A stretch of DNA of 64,000 bases from Escherichia phage vB_EcoM_WL-3, in the sequence record MT968995.1, one strand, 5' to 3'. Under the pieces are notes generated by a model. That model searched no databases and was not told where the DNA came from. It saw only the letters and a program-made list of their open reading frames with translations. Position 1 is the first letter of the stretch. Each line of letters opens with the position of its first letter. Made by a program: the position numbers and the translations under genes. Shown here one piece after another: positions 4,618 to 35,450 of this stretch.

Positions 4618-4981
4618 ATTTAATGGCTTGAAGAAGACTAATAATTCTCAAGCGGCTTCTTTCATCTTTAACTGTAAAAGAAAGAGGGTCGCCAGATTTC
4701 ATAGTGATAGTGCATTCAAAATCAAAATCTTCAGGAACTTCTTCGAAGAAGTCAAATTCTTCATCATAAATTAGAACATTACTCTGAAAACTATGAAGAA
4801 TTTTTCCATCATTTCCAGATGCTGTACTAATCATTGTAACATTATGGCCTTTCATATCTTCAACGATAAATTCACTTGTAGATATTACGGCATTAATAGA
4901 ACCATTCCTATAAATAGAAGAAAATAGATATTTCTTTTCTTCACCTTCGCGAACACGATATTTCTTACCAATTTTAAACAT
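4610..4981 (-). CDS. hypothetical protein (123 aa)
   Basis: ORF in track, same-strand packing with overlap to the neighbouring gene. Confidence 0.5.
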   Translation of the reverse strand: MFKIGKKYRVREGEEKKYLFSSIYRNGSINAVISTSEFIVEDMKGHNVTMISTASGNDGKILHSFQSNVLIYDEEFDFFEEVPEDFDFECTITMKSGDPLSFTVKDERSRLRIISLLQAIKFE

Positions 4982-9652: not shown

Positions 9653-10399
9653 TTATCCTCGGATAAGTTTAAAAATTGAACAATTTAGCGGGTATCCTCT
9701 TTTCAGTTTAAGTTTATCAATAAAAGACAAGTTTTGATACCGCTCTACACCTTGAATAATTTTATCACACATATCATATTGCATTTCTGCTTCTGACAAC
9801 TTTTTCACAGTTTTCCAATCCGAGCCTTTAAGAAGAACGTTCAATTTAACAACTTCAGCGCCTTCTGCTATACGAGAACCATCAATACGAGCTTTGAGTG
9901 CTATAATCATTAGCTTAATGTCAGATGTTTGTTTTGATTTAGAAAGCTGAGAAATGTGCTCAATTCGGTTTTCACGTTTTTTCTGTATAGCTTTAATTTG
10001 ATTATAAGTCTTTTTGATTTTAGCCCATTTCTTTTCATCTAAATTTAGTTTATGAACTTTTTTCGCAGATGAACGACCAATTCGCAAAGCAAATAAATCA
10101 CGCTTTTCAATCAACTCTTCTAAAGTATAATCAGAACGAAATGTATTATACTTTTTCTTTACTGCAATAACATTCCCTTTAATGTATCCAACGTTATTAT
10201 CAAAACGTTCTAACGATAATTTCTCTCCTTCAATACGATTATCAAAAGGTTCTCCTGAGTAAGCGCAAACTTTCTGATCTAAAATGTTCTTAATGTAATT
10301 GAAGTCTAAGTTAAAATCTTTAGAACGTCTTTTGGCAGATGCCTGAGTATGCTCTAGACGACGTTTAATTTTACGAATTTGATTTTTAGACAGTTTCAT
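9653..10399 (-). CDS. srd: Srd-like protein (T4 srd position)
   Basis: 248-aa basic protein; synteny between dda.1 and modA; sequence not independently verified. Confidence 0.5.
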   Translation of the reverse strand: MKLSKNQIRKIKRRLEHTQASAKRRSKDFNLDFNYIKNILDQKVCAYSGEPFDNRIEGEKLSLERFDNNVGYIKGNVIAVKKKYNTFRSDYTLEELIEKRDLFALRIGRSSAKKVHKLNLDEKKWAKIKKTYNQIKAIQKKRENRIEHISQLSKSKQTSDIKLMIIALKARIDGSRIAEGAEVVKLNVLLKGSDWKTVKKLSEAEMQYDMCDKIIQGVERYQNLSFIDKLKLKRGYPLNCSIFKLIRG

Positions 10400-10426
10400 A
10401 TTTTTCTCACGGACGGGTTAACTACT

Positions 10427-10462
10427 TATACTATAACATTTTTACTTCAGCTTGTAAACAAC
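10427..10462 (-). promoter_or_regulatory. early promoter upstream of srd
   Basis: minus strand GTTTACAAGCTGAAGTAAAAATGTTATAGTAT. Confidence 0.5.
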
Positions 10463-10469
10463 TTTATGA

Positions 10470-10498
10470 AAAATGCTTTAAAACTTTCATGGTATAAT
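10470..10498 (+). promoter_or_regulatory. MotA-box middle-promoter-like motif on the plus (antisense) strand
   Basis: plus strand AAATGCTTTA, 12 nt, TGGTATAAT; spacing fits the T4 middle promoter consensus; could be coincidental. Confidence 0.3.
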
Positions 10499-10515
10499 GA
10501 ATCTAAGTCCTTCCA

Positions 10516-14272: not shown

Positions 14273-14791
14273 TTAATAACCTCGATCTTGACGAGCGAAG
14301 TTTTCAGCATTTTTCAGATAATAAAGTTTAAAGATTTCTTCAGCCGTAAGACCGAGACCTTGGAACATATTCAGAACGAAATGAAGAATATCAATCATTT
14401 CAAATTTAATTTCCAACTGGTCTTGCGGAGACAAATCAGTAATTAGAGTTTCACGGCGTTCACCATGCTGTGACTTCCAAGGTTTCCATACAGCAGATGC
14501 ATCTTTTTCACCATTGCTCATACCACCAAGAGAAGTCAGAAGTTCACGGAATTCATCATCAATGTAATCTTTCTGATTACGCAGCCAATCAACAACTTCG
14601 CCTGCAGTAGCCAAATCATCAGGATGACGGTTATATTCAGGTTTATCTTTAGCTAAACGAACCTGCAAAGATTTCTGCATATCAAGCATAACTTGCAGTG
14701 GGTCTTTTTCGTCACCGAGAATATCCCAGTATTCATTTTGAGCTTTATCAGCGCCTTCGATCAGTTGACTACATTCGTTGAAATGTGGCAT
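14273..14791 (-). CDS. 56: dCTPase / dUTPase (MazG-like NTP pyrophosphohydrolase)
   Basis: 172 aa; position and size of T4 gp56. Confidence 0.8.
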   Translation of the reverse strand: MPHFNECSQLIEGADKAQNEYWDILGDEKDPLQVMLDMQKSLQVRLAKDKPEYNRHPDDLATAGEVVDWLRNQKDYIDDEFRELLTSLGGMSNGEKDASAVWKPWKSQHGERRETLITDLSPQDQLEIKFEMIDILHFVLNMFQGLGLTAEEIFKLYYLKNAENFARQDRGY

Positions 14792-14792
14792 G

Positions 14793-15443
14793 TTATTTTT
14801 CCTTTCTTATGAAGTTTTCTATCATATGTCTATAGCAGATATTAGGATAACCTGCCTTGACAGCTATTTTATTAAATTTTGTGCGCTTAGGTCTATTATT
14901 ATAAACCCATAATTCATAAAGCGCATCATAACTATTCCATATTTCTCCTCGCCTAGGATTTGGTAAACCATATCGAGGTGAATTTTTACCGCTAAATCTT
15001 CCTTTTCGGGCTTTACTCATATTAGTCTTGGCTTCATCGGATATAATTTTACCTTTATGAGCTAGACGCATTTTGGCTTTAGTTTCTTCTGGAGTCTTTT
15101 TACCTTTAATCCATGACGGCTTGCCATATCTAGGATTATTTTCACCCGAGAAAAGAACAGAGTTTTGGATTTTAAGGGTTTCTATTAATCTACTTGTTAA
15201 TTTAACACCTTTATTATATCGCATTAAATTTACAGCATAATGCAATCCTCTCACATCTGGATATATTTTAGTTAATAATCTATGAGCTATAAAATGCTCA
15301 CGCGCAGTTAACTCAACAAGATTGTTTTTGCCATCTGCTCCTCCCATACATCTAGGAATTATATGATGGCGTTCTTTATATCCGCCAAGATGCCGGCATT
15401 TAGCTTTTGTAATTAAAGCCGAATAAATTTTTTGGTAATTCAC
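14793..15443 (-). CDS. HNH homing endonuclease (Mob family)
   Basis: N-terminus ...ERHHIIPRCMGG...NNLVELTAREHFIAH, an HNH signature; paralog of the ORF at 52242-52931; sits where T4 has gene 69/dam. Confidence 0.75.
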   Translation of the reverse strand: MNYQKIYSALITKAKCRHLGGYKERHHIIPRCMGGADGKNNLVELTAREHFIAHRLLTKIYPDVRGLHYAVNLMRYNKGVKLTSRLIETLKIQNSVLFSGENNPRYGKPSWIKGKKTPEETKAKMRLAHKGKIISDEAKTNMSKARKGRFSGKNSPRYGLPNPRRGEIWNSYDALYELWVYNNRPKRTKFNKIAVKAGYPNICYRHMIENFIRKEK

Positions 15444-19567: not shown

Positions 19568-19930
19568 TTAAAAGAATTTAAACTTTTTCTTTGACCTTTT
19601 ATTAAATGCATCTTGTAGTTGCATTGTAATACATTTTTCTACATGAGGAGCTAACTCAGCTTTTCTTTCTTGGTCAAGAACAGCAAAGTCCATTACGACT
19701 TTTCCATCAACCCAATCTAATTTTGTCACATACACAATGTGTGTAGAACCATCTTCTAGTTTAATGACAATCTCCTGGATAACATTTTCCATGGCAGATT
19801 TAATTATCTTAAGAGACTCATTAAAAAGACGTTCTTTTCTTTCTTCTTCCCCCTCCGAAGAGGGGGATTCGTCGATAATTTCTAGATCTAAATCTAAATC
19901 ATCTTTATTCATTAAATTCTTCCATATCAC
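19568..19930 (-). CDS. 40: gp40-position protein (head vertex assembly chaperone in T4)
   Basis: 120-aa ORF between 41 and uvsX; positional assignment only. Confidence 0.5.
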   Translation of the reverse strand: MIWKNLMNKDDLDLDLEIIDESPSSEGEEERKERLFNESLKIIKSAMENVIQEIVIKLEDGSTHIVYVTKLDWVDGKVVMDFAVLDQERKAELAPHVEKCITMQLQDAFNKRSKKKFKFF

Positions 19931-21086
19931 TTAACTGTTCGAGGTCAGTTTCTAAATCAGCAGCTGATTTACTTTTACTTTCTGGAGATTTAAATTTTTC
20001 AACCTTTGAGTTAATCAATTCATCAACTTCAGCTTCAACAATTTCATTACTATCAATAGCACCTAACTGATAAGCACGTTTAATAGCATCTCGGAATGGT
20101 TGATGCTTAAATAAAGGACCCCAGAATGTAGTGCAGTTGGTATCTTTTGCACGCCAAGATTTTTCTTCGCGAATCATCTCGCCGGTTTCTTCATCAAGAA
20201 ATTCACGAGCATACCAACCATTTTTAGGTTTTACTACAAATCCTAATTCTAGAGCCATATCTAACAATCCAGAATAAGGATCAATACCACCGTCAAATTT
20301 AACATCAATAAAGAATTTACTTTTTTCTTTAACGGTACGAGATTTTTCTACATTTAGAACAAATTGATACCCCTGAAGATCAGAACCATCTTTAATCTGA
20401 CGCTTACCGATAATGAATACAGTATCAGCCGAATACATTACGCCTGTACCACCTGTCATCACGGTTTTACTAAACATTTCAATTGTTTCAATTGTATGGT
20501 TAACCGCAACACATGGAATATTTTTAATGCTAAAGTAAGGAGTAACAATACGGAATAATGACTTCAGTGATTTAGCACGAGTCATATCTGCCACAGATTT
20601 TTCATTCAAGGCATCTTCCGTTTCTTTCTTAGAAGCCATATTACCGATTGAGTCGATGAATACAATAACTTTTTCACCGCGCTCAATAGCTTCAAGCTGA
20701 TTCACCATATCAATTTTTAGCTGTTCAACTGACTGAATTGGCGTATGAATTACTCGTTCTGGGTCAACCCCCATGGATCGCAAATAAGCTGGAGTAATAC
20801 CAAATTCGCTATCATAGAATAGACAAACCGCGTCAGGATATTTGTTCAAATATGCCGCAACCATAGTCAAAGACATATTTGATTTAAAGTGTTTAGAAGG
20901 CCCTGCGAAAATAGTTAAACCAGACTGCATACCGCCATCAATCGCACCAGAAATAGCAATATTAAGCATTGGAATTTTTGTACGAATTACATCCTTTTCA
21001 TTAAAGAATTTAGATGTAGTCAGTTCAGCAGTCATTTTAGAAGTGGAAGCTTTAATCAAACGGGATTTTAAATCTGCAATAGACAT
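19905..21086 (-). CDS. uvsX: UvsX recombinase (RecA-like)
   Basis: 393 aa; RecA-fold motifs; acidic C-terminus; size and position as T4 UvsX. Confidence 0.9.
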   Translation of the reverse strand: MSIADLKSRLIKASTSKMTAELTTSKFFNEKDVIRTKIPMLNIAISGAIDGGMQSGLTIFAGPSKHFKSNMSLTMVAAYLNKYPDAVCLFYDSEFGITPAYLRSMGVDPERVIHTPIQSVEQLKIDMVNQLEAIERGEKVIVFIDSIGNMASKKETEDALNEKSVADMTRAKSLKSLFRIVTPYFSIKNIPCVAVNHTIETIEMFSKTVMTGGTGVMYSADTVFIIGKRQIKDGSDLQGYQFVLNVEKSRTVKEKSKFFIDVKFDGGIDPYSGLLDMALELGFVVKPKNGWYAREFLDEETGEMIREEKSWRAKDTNCTTFWGPLFKHQPFRDAIKRAYQLGAIDSNEIVEAEVDELINSKVEKFKSPESKSKSAADLETDLEQLSDMEEFNE

Positions 21087-21163: not shown

Positions 21164-22006
21164 TTAATCAACTGCTATTGGATGAATAGCATTAAACTTA
21201 TGAAATGCTTCTGATTTTTCTTTACGCGAAACGCACATGCGAAGAACCTTTAATGGCTCGTCTTCTTCACCCAACGATTTTCGTTTTTCAATATTAGAAG
21301 TTTTCCAACGAGCTTGCTCTGGAAACTCTCTATTGATTTGCTCAAGCGCTCTATTATGTTTAGAATTACTACGAATTGAACTGCACCCTCCAGGAGCTTG
21401 TGCTTTTCCAGATACAACCAGATATTTGAACAAGGCCAAATGCGGATAACCTTGATTAATTAAATTGAGAAATGCATACATATCTTCGCACAAATCAATT
21501 TTTCCATACCCAATTTGTTCTGTCGTAAGTTTTCCAAGGTCATACCATGTATTCGTGAATCCATATGAATTTTCACGATAATTACCCCAAGATGAAGTAA
21601 TTTTAAAAATTGGTAGGCGAGCATGACCGTGATAATACCCACAATCCATGGCATCTTCGACGTATTGAATCAATTCATAGAACTGTTCACGAGTCAATTG
21701 ATTGACTTTATCCACACAACGACGATCATCTCTTTTTCGCATTGAACTCATACGAATAGTAGTATCATCGTCAATCATCCAGATTCGTTGACCTGCATAC
21801 ATATCAGTAATTGCTTTACGAGTACCGGCAATTCCATTAACATCATCAGGAATAGTTACAATTTTAGCTTTAGACCCATAGGCATCATAATAAGCTTTTT
21901 CTTCATGTTCACGTACTACGATATGAGGTTCATAATCAGTCGGAAACATATCAAGGGCAGAAACTGCCCCTACACGTTGATAGCTCGGAATTACGAATTG
22001 AATCAT
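21164..22006 (-). CDS. putative glycosyltransferase (DxD motif) in the beta-gt slot
   Basis: 280 aa with IWMIDDDTTI; not T4 beta-gt by sequence recall; position fits the T2/T6 beta-glucosyl-HMC-alpha-glucosyltransferase locus. Confidence 0.5.
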   Translation of the reverse strand: MIQFVIPSYQRVGAVSALDMFPTDYEPHIVVREHEEKAYYDAYGSKAKIVTIPDDVNGIAGTRKAITDMYAGQRIWMIDDDTTIRMSSMRKRDDRRCVDKVNQLTREQFYELIQYVEDAMDCGYYHGHARLPIFKITSSWGNYRENSYGFTNTWYDLGKLTTEQIGYGKIDLCEDMYAFLNLINQGYPHLALFKYLVVSGKAQAPGGCSSIRSNSKHNRALEQINREFPEQARWKTSNIEKRKSLGEEDEPLKVLRMCVSRKEKSEAFHKFNAIHPIAVD

Positions 22007-22644
22007 TTAAGTGCCTTACATTTGTCAAAATGGTATCTTGTCATATTTGGCCCACGTCCTTTTAGTCCGCAATGCGGACATATTTTTTCTATCAAATTAT
22101 GAGGTTTTCCTTTACGATTTTTAGACATCGTTTCTTTAATTATTTTAGCTTTTTCTACGCCAAAAATTTCTTCATAAGTTTTACCAGAATTTTCCTTGGC
22201 TCGATTTATAATTCCATATGCCTGCTCATTTTTACCATACATTGGATTACCTTCGCCTTTCATTCTTTTAGAATGATCAGGACGCTTGATTCCACGAAAG
22301 GCATTTCCGCACTTATATCTTTCTTCTGGAGATAGTTTTTTACCGTACATTCCATTTAATTTGCCTGGAAAACTTCCTCCCCATGCTTCATTCTTTAAAT
22401 TATATGAATCCGGACAATTAGCAGCATCTAAACAAGTTAAAATAATTTCTTCAACCTGTCTAAACATTGGTCCTTCATATAATATTTCTTTATTAAAGAA
22501 TTTTATTCCATATTTCTTTTTAGCATGTTGCCAAACTACACCCGAACCATCATAATTCGGGTTGTGACCATCATGACTTCCTATATACCACTTTTTAGTT
22601 TTAGGATGTTTATACTTATAAACATGTGGCACATTTACTTCCAT
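22003..22644 (-). CDS. GIY-YIG homing endonuclease (Seg-like)
   Basis: 213 aa; N-terminal HVYKY...KWYIGSH GIY-YIG-like motif plus NUMOD-like basic repeats; overlaps both neighbours. Confidence 0.65.
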   Translation of the reverse strand: MEVNVPHVYKYKHPKTKKWYIGSHDGHNPNYDGSGVVWQHAKKKYGIKFFNKEILYEGPMFRQVEEIILTCLDAANCPDSYNLKNEAWGGSFPGKLNGMYGKKLSPEERYKCGNAFRGIKRPDHSKRMKGEGNPMYGKNEQAYGIINRAKENSGKTYEEIFGVEKAKIIKETMSKNRKGKPHNLIEKICPHCGLKGRGPNMTRYHFDKCKALK

Positions 22645-23375
22645 TTTCCAGTATAATCCTTTTTAGCAATATGAGTCTCACCGGTGTTCCACCAATGGTC
22701 AACTAAATAAAACTGATTTTCGTACACATGAAGACTTCCAACGTTCCATATAATAGAACCTGCTTTATATTGCCGCGATGGGTCGCCTGCATTCAAATCA
22801 GATACTAATTTATCTAGTACGTATTTTTGCCAAGCATAATCATTACGATAGCCTGCCCAGCAATCATTGCTTCTCATGCTAACAACCGCATTGACTTTCT
22901 TATCACGAATCAGGTACTGTACTGTATTCGTACACATGAAATCTGACATACCATCTTTATTGTAGTCAAACTGCATGGATGGACGAGTATAAATCATGAT
23001 ACCACGTCGAGAATCAGGATTTTGACCAAGTTCAGCTAAACACATGTCATACTGAGCATAGTTATCTTCTGACCAGATGGCCCAACCATAATTCGAGTTA
23101 ATTTCGCCTTTAAAAGATGCTACCTGCTGCCAAATCTTTGGTGTTTCACCTGGAATATCTTTAACAAACAAACTTTGAGACTTATACCATTCAAGTTCAC
23201 GCTGAATGTATTCATCATTAAGAGCACCAAAAATAAAAGGTTCATCTGCTACAAATGATGCACCAATAATTTCAATAGTTTTAACACCGGTTTTATCAAT
23301 TACGAAATCTTTTTCCTTTAATGCAATTCCCAAATGAAGACGGATTTCTTCAACTGTCATAGAGTCATTAATCAT
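22635..23375 (-). CDS. 42: dCMP hydroxymethylase
   Basis: 246 aa; thymidylate-synthase-like fold; size and position as T4 gp42. Confidence 0.9.
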   Translation of the reverse strand: MINDSMTVEEIRLHLGIALKEKDFVIDKTGVKTIEIIGASFVADEPFIFGALNDEYIQRELEWYKSQSLFVKDIPGETPKIWQQVASFKGEINSNYGWAIWSEDNYAQYDMCLAELGQNPDSRRGIMIYTRPSMQFDYNKDGMSDFMCTNTVQYLIRDKKVNAVVSMRSNDCWAGYRNDYAWQKYVLDKLVSDLNAGDPSRQYKAGSIIWNVGSLHVYENQFYLVDHWWNTGETHIAKKDYTGKWK

Positions 23376-24596: not shown

Positions 24597-27293
24597 TCAG
24601 CCAAACAGGAAGTCTAACGAAGCTTTTTCCTCATAGTCCATACCTGCCGATTCACACATGCCCGCAAGCGGTTTAACAAACGATTTTTGGAACAAAGTTG
24701 AGTAGTCAATCCAAGACAGTACATCAGAACGAATTTCTTTTGGAAGTTCTGTGCCCGACGGCCAAGCAATACACTTGTCACCAAATGGATTTCCCTCACG
24801 TAATGGAAGAACCATTACCTTATTTCCATCCAAAATTGGAGCTACACCTAAACCGCTAACAGCTCGACGATAAGTTAGTACACCACGAATATGGAACGGG
24901 CATTTAAACCCTGGCCAACCTTTATCATCATATTTCGCTATATCGTTCGCGGTTTTTACTTCAGCAATAACTTTATAGTCAAGTTGACGATATTCTTTCT
25001 CAAAGTTCTTATAGTATTCTTGGACAGACTCTTCGCCTTCCTGAAGAATACGACGAATACTTTCTTCGAGAGCTTCTTGTACTGCTTTTGGTGTTGAACT
25101 CTGCTGAGTTTCCATACCCATGATTTTTAGATGTGGTTCAGCAAATCGCTTATCTTCCATATCATAAACGTTCAGAGCATAACGTTTTTTCGCTTTCCAA
25201 AATCCACCAACACCCTTTGAACCAAGTGGAGGGCAAGAAATAGCTTCACGGTCCATATGCATCAGATGCTCGCGGTTATTCATATAATCACATAACTCAC
25301 GATATGCAACATCAATCATAGGTTCCATCTTTTTCTTACCGAACTGATTCATGAATTCAACTAAATCATTTTGTTCTTTAAAGCGGTCAAGACCTACTTT
25401 TTCAATAACTTTATCTACACAGACATATACCGAATCAGTATCACCTGCTGCGATGAAATCTTCACCATCAGTTCCACATACTTTATTCAGATATTCATTA
25501 ATTTTACGAGCAATCCACTGAATACCAACTTGACCAAAAATTGTGATAGCAGTAGCATTTCGCAAATCATAGTAACGGAAATGAATATTACCAAGAGCAC
25601 CATAAAGACTGTTAATAAGAATTTTACGGTTCAGCTGATTTGTGTTAGCAAGTGTAGCAGCTTTTTCACATTCTTCAATCAGACTATTAAGAACAGATTC
25701 GGTGTAATTCGATAATTCGTTTAAGAAATCATCACTGAACTTAACATATCGTTCAACTTCTGGTTTAGTTGAGCAAGTCCCTGCGCCTTTCATAATAATC
25801 TTTTTAATAGCTTCGGCATTCATTTCTTCAGCGAACATTTTCTTTTTCCAATCTTTACGCTGGAAAAATACTTTAGCGATTTCCTTTGGAATGATACCTT
25901 CTTGATGCTTATCATACATCCATCCATTCGGAGAACAAGAATATTCATCACTTGGCTTAGGAGCTGTTCCTGCGATATATTCATGAATTGGATGAACTTT
26001 AAACTGTCCACGAATAGTCTCAGGACTAATGTTAACCTGACGAATAATGCTAGGATACAGAGACGTCAAGTCAAAACTCATAATGTATCGACGGGCAATC
26101 GGTTTAGGTTCAAATACAAATGCACCTGGAAAACTCTGTTTAACGTGCGAACCTTGTTGAGGAATAACCTTATGTTCACCTTTCAGTGAGTTAAAAATAA
26201 TAGCATCCCAAGTTTTAATAGGACTCATTACACCAGAAAAAGGCATTTTAGCGTAATAAGACATACTTAAAACTAGATCAATAAACCCGCGAATTTTATC
26301 AATTGCTTGAACTGATTCTACGTCAATAATGTTATAACTAATGTATCGTTGATGATTAGTCTCACGAAGTTTATTAATAGGACCATCGTACGGCAATTTA
26401 CCTTTTTTGGTTTCGTGCTGAGCAACTGATTCCAAAGAGAATGATGGCAAATTAGTAAATGCGAATTTTTTGTACAAATCTAAATAATCAAGAATAGATA
26501 CGCCATCAATAGAATAAATTTCTTTGCTACCGTACATATTTTGAATTAGTTTAGATTTTACTCGACCGATTGGAGAGAAGCGTTTCATACTACGTTCACC
26601 GAGAACCATTTTAACACGATTCATGATATACGGAACGTCAAATCCCTCAATATTCCAACCGGTAAAAATAGCAGGTCGTTTCTGTTCCCAGAGATTAATA
26701 TATTCCATGAGCATATCACGCTCATTATCGAATGGCATATAAATTACTCGGTCAAGAATTTCTTGAGGAACTTCATCACCACCTTCACAGTCAAGCTTAG
26801 CAGCTAACTTTGCATCCCATTTTGATACTGAACCGTACATTGAATTCAACAAATCAAAGACGTAAAAACGGTCGTCAATTGAATCATAATGAGTGATAGC
26901 ATCAATTTCATATTCTGCTTTCATTGGGTCAGGAAATTTATCACCAGTAACCTCAATGTCACAGTTAGCTACACGAACAAATTTTCGGTCATAAACAATT
27001 TCTGAACCATATGTATCACTGATATAAGCGAGTTTAAAATCGTTCATACCGAGAGCTTCGAGACCGATGTCTTCCATTCGTTTCATCCAATCTCGTGCAT
27101 CTTTCATTGATGGAAATTTTTGAGGAGCACAGTTTTTACCGTAAATGTCTTTGTACTTTGACTCTTCCTTACAATGCCTAAACATAGTCGGAAGATATTC
27201 TACTTCACGAGTACGTTCCTTTCCGTTTTCATCAATATAACGTTCAACAATGTTATTTCCGACTGTTTCGATAGAGATATAAAATTCTTTCAT
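24597..27293 (-). CDS. 43: DNA polymerase (family B)
   Basis: 898 aa; exonuclease and polymerase motifs including YGDTDS; size and position as T4 gp43. Confidence 0.95.
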   Translation of the reverse strand: MKEFYISIETVGNNIVERYIDENGKERTREVEYLPTMFRHCKEESKYKDIYGKNCAPQKFPSMKDARDWMKRMEDIGLEALGMNDFKLAYISDTYGSEIVYDRKFVRVANCDIEVTGDKFPDPMKAEYEIDAITHYDSIDDRFYVFDLLNSMYGSVSKWDAKLAAKLDCEGGDEVPQEILDRVIYMPFDNERDMLMEYINLWEQKRPAIFTGWNIEGFDVPYIMNRVKMVLGERSMKRFSPIGRVKSKLIQNMYGSKEIYSIDGVSILDYLDLYKKFAFTNLPSFSLESVAQHETKKGKLPYDGPINKLRETNHQRYISYNIIDVESVQAIDKIRGFIDLVLSMSYYAKMPFSGVMSPIKTWDAIIFNSLKGEHKVIPQQGSHVKQSFPGAFVFEPKPIARRYIMSFDLTSLYPSIIRQVNISPETIRGQFKVHPIHEYIAGTAPKPSDEYSCSPNGWMYDKHQEGIIPKEIAKVFFQRKDWKKKMFAEEMNAEAIKKIIMKGAGTCSTKPEVERYVKFSDDFLNELSNYTESVLNSLIEECEKAATLANTNQLNRKILINSLYGALGNIHFRYYDLRNATAITIFGQVGIQWIARKINEYLNKVCGTDGEDFIAAGDTDSVYVCVDKVIEKVGLDRFKEQNDLVEFMNQFGKKKMEPMIDVAYRELCDYMNNREHLMHMDREAISCPPLGSKGVGGFWKAKKRYALNVYDMEDKRFAEPHLKIMGMETQQSSTPKAVQEALEESIRRILQEGEESVQEYYKNFEKEYRQLDYKVIAEVKTANDIAKYDDKGWPGFKCPFHIRGVLTYRRAVSGLGVAPILDGNKVMVLPLREGNPFGDKCIAWPSGTELPKEIRSDVLSWIDYSTLFQKSFVKPLAGMCESAGMDYEEKASLDFLFG

Positions 27294-34231: not shown

Positions 34232-34249
34232 AAAGGGCCGAAGCCCTTT
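34232..34249 (-). terminator. tetraloop hairpin at the end of alpha-gt
   Basis: AAAGGGC-CGAA-GCCCTTT. Confidence 0.5.
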
Positions 34250-35450
34250 ATTTTGTAATAATGTCAAATTGTTCTTTAAAGCAGAAGCTTGAATCTTGAT
34301 GCTGATACAAAAATTCATAAGCTTTTTCGCGTTCGCGGTCATAAAGAGCTCGGTCAGATGACAGTTCTTTAATACGTTCAAATGTTGATTCCATGTCATT
34401 TTCATCAAACCAAACGATACCGCTATCATGAGAAATTAATGGAGTATTATCAACACGGAATTTTAAATTTTCGCCCGTAGATTTCCAAAATACTGGAATT
34501 GTTCCGCATGCACCAAGCTCGAGATGAGTATATTCTAAAGAACGTTGTAGATATTTTTTATCTAATTTACTCAGCTGATAACCAAATCCGGATTTACTCA
34601 TACGTTCAAGCATTTCGCTATTTACATAACGGTCAAGAATTTGCGTTGGCAAATTAGGAGCAATTTTAATTTGGTCTACTTGATGAAGACGATAATACTC
34701 GTATGGAATTCCTTTTTCTTTAATAGGAATGAATGCTGGAGAACGTTCCAGACCTTCCATAATAGTACTTAGTCCTGCAGGTTTAAGATGTTTTTCGTGA
34801 AAATCAAACATCTGGTAAAAACCTTTCCATGTAGTCGTACGACCAATCCAACGGTTGATATTCATGTTAATTTCAGAAACATCTTTCCAGTAGGTTGATC
34901 GAACCTTCGCAATATCCATAGGAGGCTGAAAGTTATATACGGTCGGTGCTTCTTCAATATCATCAAACAAAGAAACAGTTTCCGGATACCATTCTTTCAT
35001 TAAAACTTTATTAAAATCGCCATTATCAGAATGACTAAAAATAACATCAGCTCGACGAACAGTTTCTTCTAATCCCAAATTTCGGCGTAAAGAAAGAGAA
35101 GAATGGTCATGCTGATAAACTACAACACGAACCGAAGGTTTAATATTATCAATAATTTTTTTATAGTTATTAATTGTGTCTTCTTCGACTGAAGTAGCAG
35201 GAACTGAATTGATAATTAGAATATCACAATCATTTACCAGCTTAAGTGTTTTATCGTATTCTTTTGCCAATAAAACCGGAATTGAAAATGATTTATAATC
35301 ATGCGCGCAATTACGAGTAAATGATTTATCTTTAGCATAAACCAAAGTTACTTCATGACCATTTTTAATAAACCAATCACGTTGCTCAAGAGAAAATTTA
35401 GTTACACCGCAACCTTCAAGACCTCGAGCCATAAAAATACATACTTTCAT
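34248..35450 (-). CDS. a-gt: DNA alpha-glucosyltransferase
   Basis: 400 aa starting MKVCIFMARGLEGCGVTKF; size and position as T4 alpha-gt. Confidence 0.85.
   Translation of the reverse strand: MKVCIFMARGLEGCGVTKFSLEQRDWFIKNGHEVTLVYAKDKSFTRNCAHDYKSFSIPVLLAKEYDKTLKLVNDCDILIINSVPATSVEEDTINNYKKIIDNIKPSVRVVVYQHDHSSLSLRRNLGLEETVRRADVIFSHSDNGDFNKVLMKEWYPETVSLFDDIEEAPTVYNFQPPMDIAKVRSTYWKDVSEINMNINRWIGRTTTWKGFYQMFDFHEKHLKPAGLSTIMEGLERSPAFIPIKEKGIPYEYYRLHQVDQIKIAPNLPTQILDRYVNSEMLERMSKSGFGYQLSKLDKKYLQRSLEYTHLELGACGTIPVFWKSTGENLKFRVDNTPLISHDSGIVWFDENDMESTFERIKELSSDRALYDREREKAYEFLYQHQDSSFCFKEQFDIITK

Follow-up and report, generated by a model that had tools for sequence, protein, structure and literature searches.

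To which of its two neighbours does an endonuclease gene belong when it lies wedged between them and overlaps both? The question is raised by a locus of Escherichia phage vB_EcoM_WL-3 (MT968995.1), of which a stretch of 64,000 nucleotides (nt), here called the window, was analysed. Between gene 42 and uvsX of this Tequatrovirus (T4-like) genome segment two open reading frames (ORFs) were confirmed, both on the minus strand: ba-gt (21164-22006), encoding a glucosyltransferase of 280 amino acids (aa), and a gene for a 213-aa protein (22003-22644) which we call seg. An earlier note, made from the letters of the sequence, had described the pair as a glycosyltransferase unlike that of T4 with an adjacent Seg-like GIY-YIG endonuclease positioned to spread the glycosyltransferase locus. 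Both identifications stood up to analysis. The proposed role in spreading ba-gt was not supported as stated: what the seg element is tied to is the final ~235 nt of gene 42 rather than ba-gt. The overall reading that we consider likely is that the glucosyltransferase is the ba-gt of the T2/T6 type and that the 213-aa protein is a Seg homing enzyme which would cut VVF-class alleles of gene 42 near codons 168-176.

Association of the endonuclease gene with the 3' end of gene 42

Gene 42 (22635-23375, minus strand) encodes a dCMP hydroxymethylase of 246 aa, as judged from a match to Pfam Thymidylat_synt (E 8e-14) and from the annotation in matching records. Ten Tequatrovirus loci with seg (seg+) and 13 without it (seg-) were aligned from the start of gene 42 to the end of uvsX. 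These alleles were sampled from GenBank phage records because IMG/VR contained only five Tequatrovirus loci. In nt 1-498 of gene 42 nucleotide diversity (pi) was 0.034 among seg+ and 0.045 among seg- loci, and divergence between the two groups (dxy) was 0.042; upstream of nt 499, then, dxy was about equal to pi. In nt 499-731 the corresponding pi values were 0.016 and 0.034 and dxy was 0.206, with 35 fixed differences between the groups. The first of these was at nt 502, so that the differentiated tract had a sharp left edge. In ba-gt there were no fixed differences (pi 0.041 in seg+ and 0.045 in seg-, dxy 0.044), and the gene was undifferentiated from its first 60-nt window on. The segment inherited with seg, nt 502-735 of gene 42, lies at 22641-22874 (minus strand) and is referred to below as the WA-class allele.

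The fixed differences were most densely clustered in nt 502-528, i.e. codons 168-176 (22848-22874, minus strand), which read ATGAGAAGCAATGATTGCTGGGCAGGCTAT in seg+ and ATGCGCTCAAATGACGTGGTCTTCGGATTC in seg- loci. Within this cluster the codons for Arg168 and Ser169 differed at five of their six bases without a change of residue (AGA AGC versus CGC TCA), and Val-Val-Phe-Gly-Phe (VVFGF) of the seg- loci was replaced by Cys-Trp-Ala-Gly-Tyr (CWAGY) in the seg+ loci. The nine codons immediately precede Arg177-Asn178-Asp179; Cys148 of the same protein is located within the sequence FMCTN. A second cluster was found in codons 218-220, where Ser-Arg-His of the seg- loci corresponded to Glu-Asn-Gln in the seg+ loci.

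The same association was evident in the phage records at large. The WA-class 3' allele was present in 86 records, including all 77 records with seg, and no seg+ record among these 77 carried the alternative VF-class allele. About seven seg-less phages also had the WA-class allele. One of them, CJY920, has the seg- type again in the final ~40 nt of gene 42 and is therefore a recombinant rather than the product of a deletion. Escherichia phage BYEP02 (OR757454.1) at first resembled a natural recombinant for the first patch only. At ~1830-2150 of its locus, however, a 77-bp duplication accompanied by a frameshift in gene 42 joins a WA-class to a VF-class copy, probably by assembly of a mixed phage population, and the record was not used.

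The endonuclease gene as an insertion

Relative to T2 and T6, seg amounts to exactly 632 extra nt inserted seamlessly between gene 42 and ba-gt. As the earlier note had remarked, it overlaps both neighbours: the ORF shares 4 nt with the ATG of ba-gt (AAATGATT) and 10 nt with the stop of gene 42. In T2, T6 and 11 other sampled Tequatrovirus loci the site is empty and the TGA of gene 42 itself overlaps the ATG of ba-gt; among phage records the empty site was found in T2, T6 and ~400 others. By contrast with the 474 records that have this ba-gt at an identity of at least 90%, seg was present in only 77 at 95% or more (70 of them at 99% or more). At 60-80% identity it was present in another 13 records, mostly from Klebsiella phages.

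In the phages that have it, seg (pi 0.0115) was about a third as diverse as ba-gt (0.041) or the 5' part of gene 42 (0.034), a pattern suggestive of recent spread among diverged genomes. An apparent absence of diversity at the seg/ba-gt junction was not accepted as a conserved element, as the alignment window consisted of only 11 nt shared by both groups. Under the annotation 'dCMP hydroxymethylase', Klebsiella phage vB_KpnM_GF (MK421971.1, ~10282-10512) contains ~90 nt resembling the 3' end of seg, possibly what is left of a degraded copy.

Family and fold of the endonuclease

The 213-aa protein was 31% identical to T4 SegA (E 1e-8) and 35% identical over aa 7-138 to SegC, its closest paralogue in T4. 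A GIY-YIG domain (~aa 6-90) is followed by two NUMOD3-like repeats (~aa 94-140), a helical region and a C-terminal beta-beta-alpha module, C189-x2-C192...H205-x3-C209, which was recognised from conservation and from an AlphaFold2 model. The motif of this module, C189-P-x-C192 ... G-P-N-M-T-R-Y-H205-F-x-x-C209, is strongly conserved in the family, and its CCHC arrangement presumably represents a zinc-finger DNA-binding module. The counterparts of the GIY and YIG motifs are V8-Y9-K10 and Y20-I21-G22, with Y9 conserved in at least 90% of sequences and Y20 and G22 invariant. Among relatives of 30-70% identity Tyr9, Tyr20, Glu65, Asn82 and the zinc-finger cysteines were all conserved at 90% or more.

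A direct sequence search of the PDB with the endonuclease gave only a spurious match, and profiles and predicted folds were used instead. The family profile matched the catalytic domain of I-TevI (1LN0/1MK0) over its full length with E 0.013-0.017; the GIY, YIG, Glu and Asn positions were aligned, E65 and N82 falling opposite E75 and N90 of I-TevI in the comparison with 1LN0. The AlphaFold2 model, built from an alignment that did not include T4 SegA, had a predicted local distance difference test (pLDDT) score of 89.3 and placed strands at residues 7-12, 19-24 and 51-57. Its top Foldseek match was again I-TevI (1MK0; template modelling score 0.63 on the target), with residues ~6-90 forming the best structural match. 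Unlike seg, I-TevI is intron-encoded, and its linker and DNA-binding domains are different. Among 31 aligned sequences (30 family members and T4 SegA) the Pfam models PF19835, PF01541 and NUMOD3 were recognised in 12, 7 and 20, respectively; PF19835 is the SegE GIY-YIG model, and all three were matched by relatives at 30-70% identity. By identity and fold we assign the 213-aa protein to the free-standing GIY-YIG homing endonucleases of the Seg type; that it is an active nuclease is a prediction.

T4 also carries a seg gene and a glucosyltransferase gene between uvsX and gene 42, as had been pointed out in the earlier note, and SegA shares with the window protein the family, the same kind of intergenic insertion and the same three-gene neighbourhood. 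The order in T4 is 42 - beta-gt - segA - uvsX, however, so that segA lies on the uvsX side of the glucosyltransferase gene whereas seg lies on the gene 42 side. In this one detail the locus departs from the earlier picture. SegA lacks the C-terminal CCHC module, and its target is uvsX, as opposed to the gene 42 target that we propose here. SegH is another gene, located in the nrd region. In literature searches no study of the window endonuclease gene was found. A few records list it as putative, and it adds an unstudied member to the set of T-even Seg homing endonucleases.

Occurrence in other phage lineages

In other lineages, too, orthologues of seg always came after gene 42, regardless of the gene on their far side. 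The Jiaodavirus KPN6, which has seg, shows the order 42 - seg - TAGT-like gene. The product of its gene 42 (gp42) is identical to that of the seg-less RCIP0102 up to Asp171, after which VVF is replaced by CWA and ERH by QNQ, and the CWA codons are embedded in otherwise native Jiaodavirus sequence. In Yersinia phage MHG19 the order is 42 - seg homologue - T4-type beta-gt - uvsX; the beta-gt is 57% identical to that of T4, and gp42 has CWA and ENQ. In IMG/VR a gp42 homologue was situated immediately upstream in all 18 loci with a seg homologue of at least 47% identity. At some of these loci gp42 was only 27-63% identical to gp42 of the window and neither ba-gt nor beta-gt was detected downstream. 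Altogether ~10 divergent lineages have a seg orthologue behind gene 42, in one case with a T4-type beta-gt as its other neighbour. In the divergent lineages different glucosyltransferase genes or none lie downstream, with spacers of 50-130 nt. Because the orthologues follow gp42 across lineages with differing or no glucosyltransferase genes downstream, the seg element is associated with gene 42 independently of which glucosyltransferase follows.

Both the lack of differentiation of ba-gt (dxy 0.044 against pi of 0.041-0.045, compared with dxy 0.206 in the last 235 nt of gene 42) and the company kept by the orthologues speak against the idea that the endonuclease is positioned to spread the glucosyltransferase locus. 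Co-conversion of the whole glucosyltransferase cassette is possible in a cross with a beta-gt phage.

The gene 42 alleles of these lineages could be compared as well. A gp42 of the xW(A/S) class was present in all ten lineages with a seg homologue of at least 52% identity, while the seg-less lineages comprised 8 of the WA class and ~20 of the VF class (Fisher p ~1e-4, or 8e-4 when locus L123, described below, is counted).

It was also observed that in diverse T4-like gp42 sequences (loci L005 to L127) residues 173-174 covary with 220-221, 'WA' occurring with Gln and 'VF' with 'RH' in all but a few cases, which points to a structural contact close to the loop of the active site.

A model for homing and its alternatives

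The explanation for the asymmetry between gene 42 and ba-gt may lie in the position of the cut. Characterised Seg enzymes of T4 cleave a neighbouring conserved gene, namely uvsX in the case of SegA, gene 56 in that of SegF and uvsW in that of SegE (PMC2988022, Table 1). The stretch from the cut to the insertion is co-converted along with the endonuclease gene (PMC2988022). The window enzyme would by analogy have gene 42 as its target. SegF and SegG are the mechanistic models, since they cut an adjacent essential gene at a distance from the insertion and the DNA between is co-converted. SegC, SegF and SegG differ from it in having other targets and no C-terminal domain, and their activity has been shown whereas that of the window enzyme is predicted.

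On this model the endonuclease would, in a mixed infection, introduce a double-strand break into gene 42 of a seg-less phage whose allele is of the common 'VVF/RH' type. The cut would fall in or close to codons 168-176, ~210-235 bp upstream of the seg insertion point. Repair from the seg+ genome would copy seg together with the intervening 3' end of gene 42. The seg+ genome would be immune, as its own gene 42 is the 'CWA/NQ' allele, recoded at the putative cut site. Cleavage of gene 42, the exact site, resistance of the WA-class allele and homing itself are all proposed here from the analogy with the T4 enzymes.

Several observations weigh against this model or against the identification on which it builds. 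The 213-aa protein itself scored below threshold on the Pfam GIY-YIG and NUMOD3 models, NUMOD3 being the only one to give a score (18.0 versus 20.4 bits), and reached 21.4 bits on TIGR01453, for which the cutoff is 56. It is assigned to the family by profile, relatives and fold. No equivalent of Arg27, the conserved arginine of helix 1 in I-TevI, could be placed, since the segment containing R27 has no aligned counterpart in the Seg profile; the near-invariant K44 might substitute for it. Cleavage and homing by this protein are predictions. Linkage over 235 bp that are ~20% divergent would be expected from proximity and suppressed recombination alone and does not locate the cut. In distant lineages the WA class often occurs without seg. 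The lineage counts depend on our own groupings, and some of the loci are near-duplicates. There is also one clear exception, L123 (IMGVR_UViG_3300009094_000363), in which an orthologue of 47% identity follows a gp42 of the AVF/ERH class; its specificity may have shifted. Finally, throughout the gp42 family the patches at 172-174 and 219-220 change together, with or without seg. Because of this the codon 218-220 patch, which had been a candidate for part of the recognition site, was rejected as such and probably represents compensation at the level of protein structure.

An enzyme that is active in homing could also be imagined to cut the empty junction between gene 42 and ba-gt, in the manner of intron-encoded enzymes. 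The insertion itself would then confer immunity by disrupting the site, and the divergent tract in gene 42 would be a hitch-hiking relic of the first acquisition, preserved by tight physical linkage and by its 20% divergence. The junction, GGTGAGTGGAAATGATTCAATTCG, is indeed highly conserved in all 13 seg- loci, and the insertion of seg is exact and seamless. A break at the junction should, however, lead to roughly symmetric co-conversion, and ba-gt shows none. Nor is the junction conserved across the divergent lineages, with their different or missing glucosyltransferase genes and their spacers, and the CWA patch of KPN6, set in native Jiaodavirus sequence, is unlike a simple relic. The recombinants, too, are one-sided: WA without seg exists and VF with seg was not seen. 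For these reasons, and above all because of the missing co-conversion of ba-gt, the variable junction and the one-sided recombinants, we regard this principal alternative to a cut within gene 42 as unlikely.

It is also conceivable that seg no longer homes and is a decaying or domesticated gene, kept for translational coupling of ba-gt or for another role in recombination or amplification, as with SegB. The ATG of ba-gt overlaps the stop of seg just as it overlaps the stop of gene 42 in seg- phages, so that an imprecise deletion of seg would harm the expression of ba-gt. The annotation of seg is frameshifted or split in some records (PYps5T, REP2/3), and in T6 a role other than homing has been described for SegB (PMC13096335). 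On the other hand, the ORF was intact in all ten of the sampled seg+ loci, the predicted catalytic residues and the zinc-finger cysteines are maintained in distant relatives as described above, and the low diversity of seg compared with its flanks points to recent spread rather than long residence. A gene without current homing is thus rather improbable, and a homing enzyme directed at gene 42 remains our preferred explanation.

A wider proposal can be attached to it, tentatively, as a possibility that we do not yet favour. The Seg protein of the window may belong to a widespread gene-42-specific family found in ~10 divergent lineages of T4-like phages, coliphages as well as uncultured ones. 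To be immune, a phage would have to both recode and replace residues 172-174 (VVF to xWA) beside the active-site Asp179, with compensation at 219-220 (RH to xQ). A selfish nuclease would thereby have driven, and would still maintain, two coupled classes of gp42. When a seg+ phage is crossed with a beta-gt phage, this nuclease and T4 SegA would act against each other across the glucosyltransferase slot. The target predicted in gene 42 is specific and would be cheap to test. Should it be borne out, nature would have supplied a clear case of amino-acid changes beside the active site of an enzyme being selected by a homing endonuclease, and therapeutic Tequatroviruses crossed with one another would have a marker-exclusion determinant between 42 and uvsX. 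Current concepts are left unchanged by the findings on either gene.

The glucosyltransferase

The 280-aa protein is the beta-glucosyl-HMC-alpha-glucosyltransferase of T2 and T6 (ba-gt, also ggt), a member of the TAGT family with a GT-A fold. It matched Pfam PF20691 (TAGT) with E 2e-9 over model positions 2-205 of 205 (38.1 bits, curated cutoff 27.5) and phrog_842, 'beta-glucosyl-HMC-alpha-glucosyltransferase', with E 2.8e-89. Alignment to the T6 enzyme, which the earlier note had named as a check, gave 256 identical residues of 261 (98%), and the DNA was 95.7% identical to T6 ggt. The slot between 42 and uvsX is the same as in T2 and T6. In an alignment of 47 family members I6, R11, R63 and D79-D80-D81 were invariant, the last being the DxD motif that had been noticed before. 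A direct sequence search of the PDB found no solved relative. The AlphaFold2 model (mean pLDDT 91.5, predicted template modelling score 0.90) had as its best Foldseek matches in the PDB exclusively GT-A enzymes, i.e. WrtF, TarP, TarS, K4CP and AvpGT (probability 1.00, E ~1e-6), and the non-glycosyltransferase fold that would have spoken against the earlier note was not among the top matches.

The beta-gt of T4 occupies the syntenic slot and likewise modifies 5-hydroxymethylcytosine (hmC) in DNA with UDP-glucose. It has a GT-B fold (PF09198), though, bears no sequence similarity to the window protein (best E 2.2) and acts on bare hmC and not on alpha-glucosyl-hmC. A search of the whole window with tblastn detected no homologue of the T4-type beta-gt (best E 1.4). 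An alpha-glucosyltransferase gene (alpha-gt; 34248-35450, minus strand, 400 aa) is present, as the earlier note had it, with a full-length match to phrog_2888 (E 3.8e-222).

T2 and T6 have no beta-gt, and their ba-gt enzyme adds a second, beta-linked glucose to alpha-glucosyl-hmC; gentiobiosyl-hmC makes up ~5% of hmC in T2 and ~72% in T6 (bioRxiv 10.64898/2026.02.25.707755; PMC13390438). In T6 this enzyme is a TAGT with a GT-A fold, encoded at the position syntenic with beta-gt of T4 (PMC13216743). By homology, the alpha-gt of the window would produce alpha-glucosyl-hmC as the substrate for ba-gt, which would add a beta-1,6-linked glucose from UDP-glucose to give gentiobiosyl-hmC DNA. Since alpha-gt is present, the T2/T6-type pattern of alpha-glucosyl and gentiobiosyl hmC is to be expected, much as the earlier note had predicted; the expectation does not extend to the gentiobiosyl fraction. 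That the enzyme uses another sugar or acceptor, such as hmC directly or beta-glucosyl-hmC, so that the DNA would not be T2/T6-like, is hardly credible: although TAGT homologues elsewhere pair with a beta-glucosyltransferase or stand alone, so that specificity varies within the family (PMC13216743), the window protein shares with the T2/T6 enzymes near-identity to T6 ggt in protein and DNA, the alpha-gt partner and the genomic slot, and Tequatroviruses with the same pair of genes have been shown by high-performance liquid chromatography and mass spectrometry to carry alpha-gentiobiosyl-hmC (PMC13390438).

The arrangement is not unusual, contrary to what the earlier note had implied. The gene was found in 674 records of the phage collection, in 474 of them at the identity of 90% or more already mentioned. 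Pairing of a TAGT with an alpha- or beta-glucosyltransferase is the usual state, and it is the alpha and beta pair of T4 that is rare (PMC13216743). The combination of ba-gt and alpha-gt without beta-gt has been published and is the common, majority arrangement in Tequatrovirus, so this half of the locus was already known. Its significance is one of annotation: the DNA should carry alpha-glucosyl-hmC and gentiobiosyl-hmC, and the predicted sugars in turn predict sensitivity to defences such as Brig1, GmrSD/BrxU and hmC glycosylases.

Apart from a few substitutions, the T6 gene differs from ba-gt of the window in its GenBank record. In MH550421.1 codon 10 of ggt is TAG (locus ~4808-4810, minus strand), whereas the window, CJY920 and BYEP02 have CAA. 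The ggt coding sequence of T6 is therefore annotated from Met20, and the invariant N-terminal IPSYxR strand is dropped. Such a TAG could have arisen by mutation in the stock or by a sequencing error, or it could be an amber allele.

Gene order and other features of the region

The early genes of the window are located on the minus strand, in the order 43 - imm.1 - imm - 42 - seg - ba-gt - uvsX - 40 - 41. Gene 43 extends from 24597 to 27293 and uvsX from 19905 to 21086, both on the minus strand, and the small ORFs of the imm region, imm.1 and imm, lie between 43 and 42 on the same strand. With Shigella phage JK23 the region shares 99.9% identity, and the two ORFs bear the annotations 'beta-glucosyl-HMC-alpha-glucosyl-transferase' and 'site-specific intron-like DNA endonuclease' in that phage. 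With the BASEL phage Bas38 AugustSocin, where they appear as 'ba-gt' and 'putative homing endonuclease', it shares 99.3%.

Scans of the region for sigma-70 promoters and terminators remained at chance level (10 found versus 10.5 expected), and no T4 late promoter, TATAAATA, was found in a scan of the region. RNA folding at the start of seg was not significant (z 0.33). A 9-bp GC-rich hairpin with a T-rich tail lies within codons ~12-18 of ba-gt (21952-21972, minus strand) and is called a terminator in two GenBank records; its fold energy did not differ significantly from that of shuffled sequences (z -0.99).

The annotation of Escherichia phage HY03 (locus 1-1577) splits uvsX into two ORFs. 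Only the first 640 nt of this uvsX match the window (90%), the remainder having no match. This may be another mosaic or an insertion, in the gene that is cut by T4 SegA.

A second free-standing homing endonuclease gene is present in the window. An ORF at 14793-15443 (minus strand) encodes an HNH endonuclease of 216 aa with NUMOD3-like repeats (Mob-like) and is located directly upstream of gene 56, the dCTPase gene (14273-14791), beside which T4 has the GIY-YIG gene segF.

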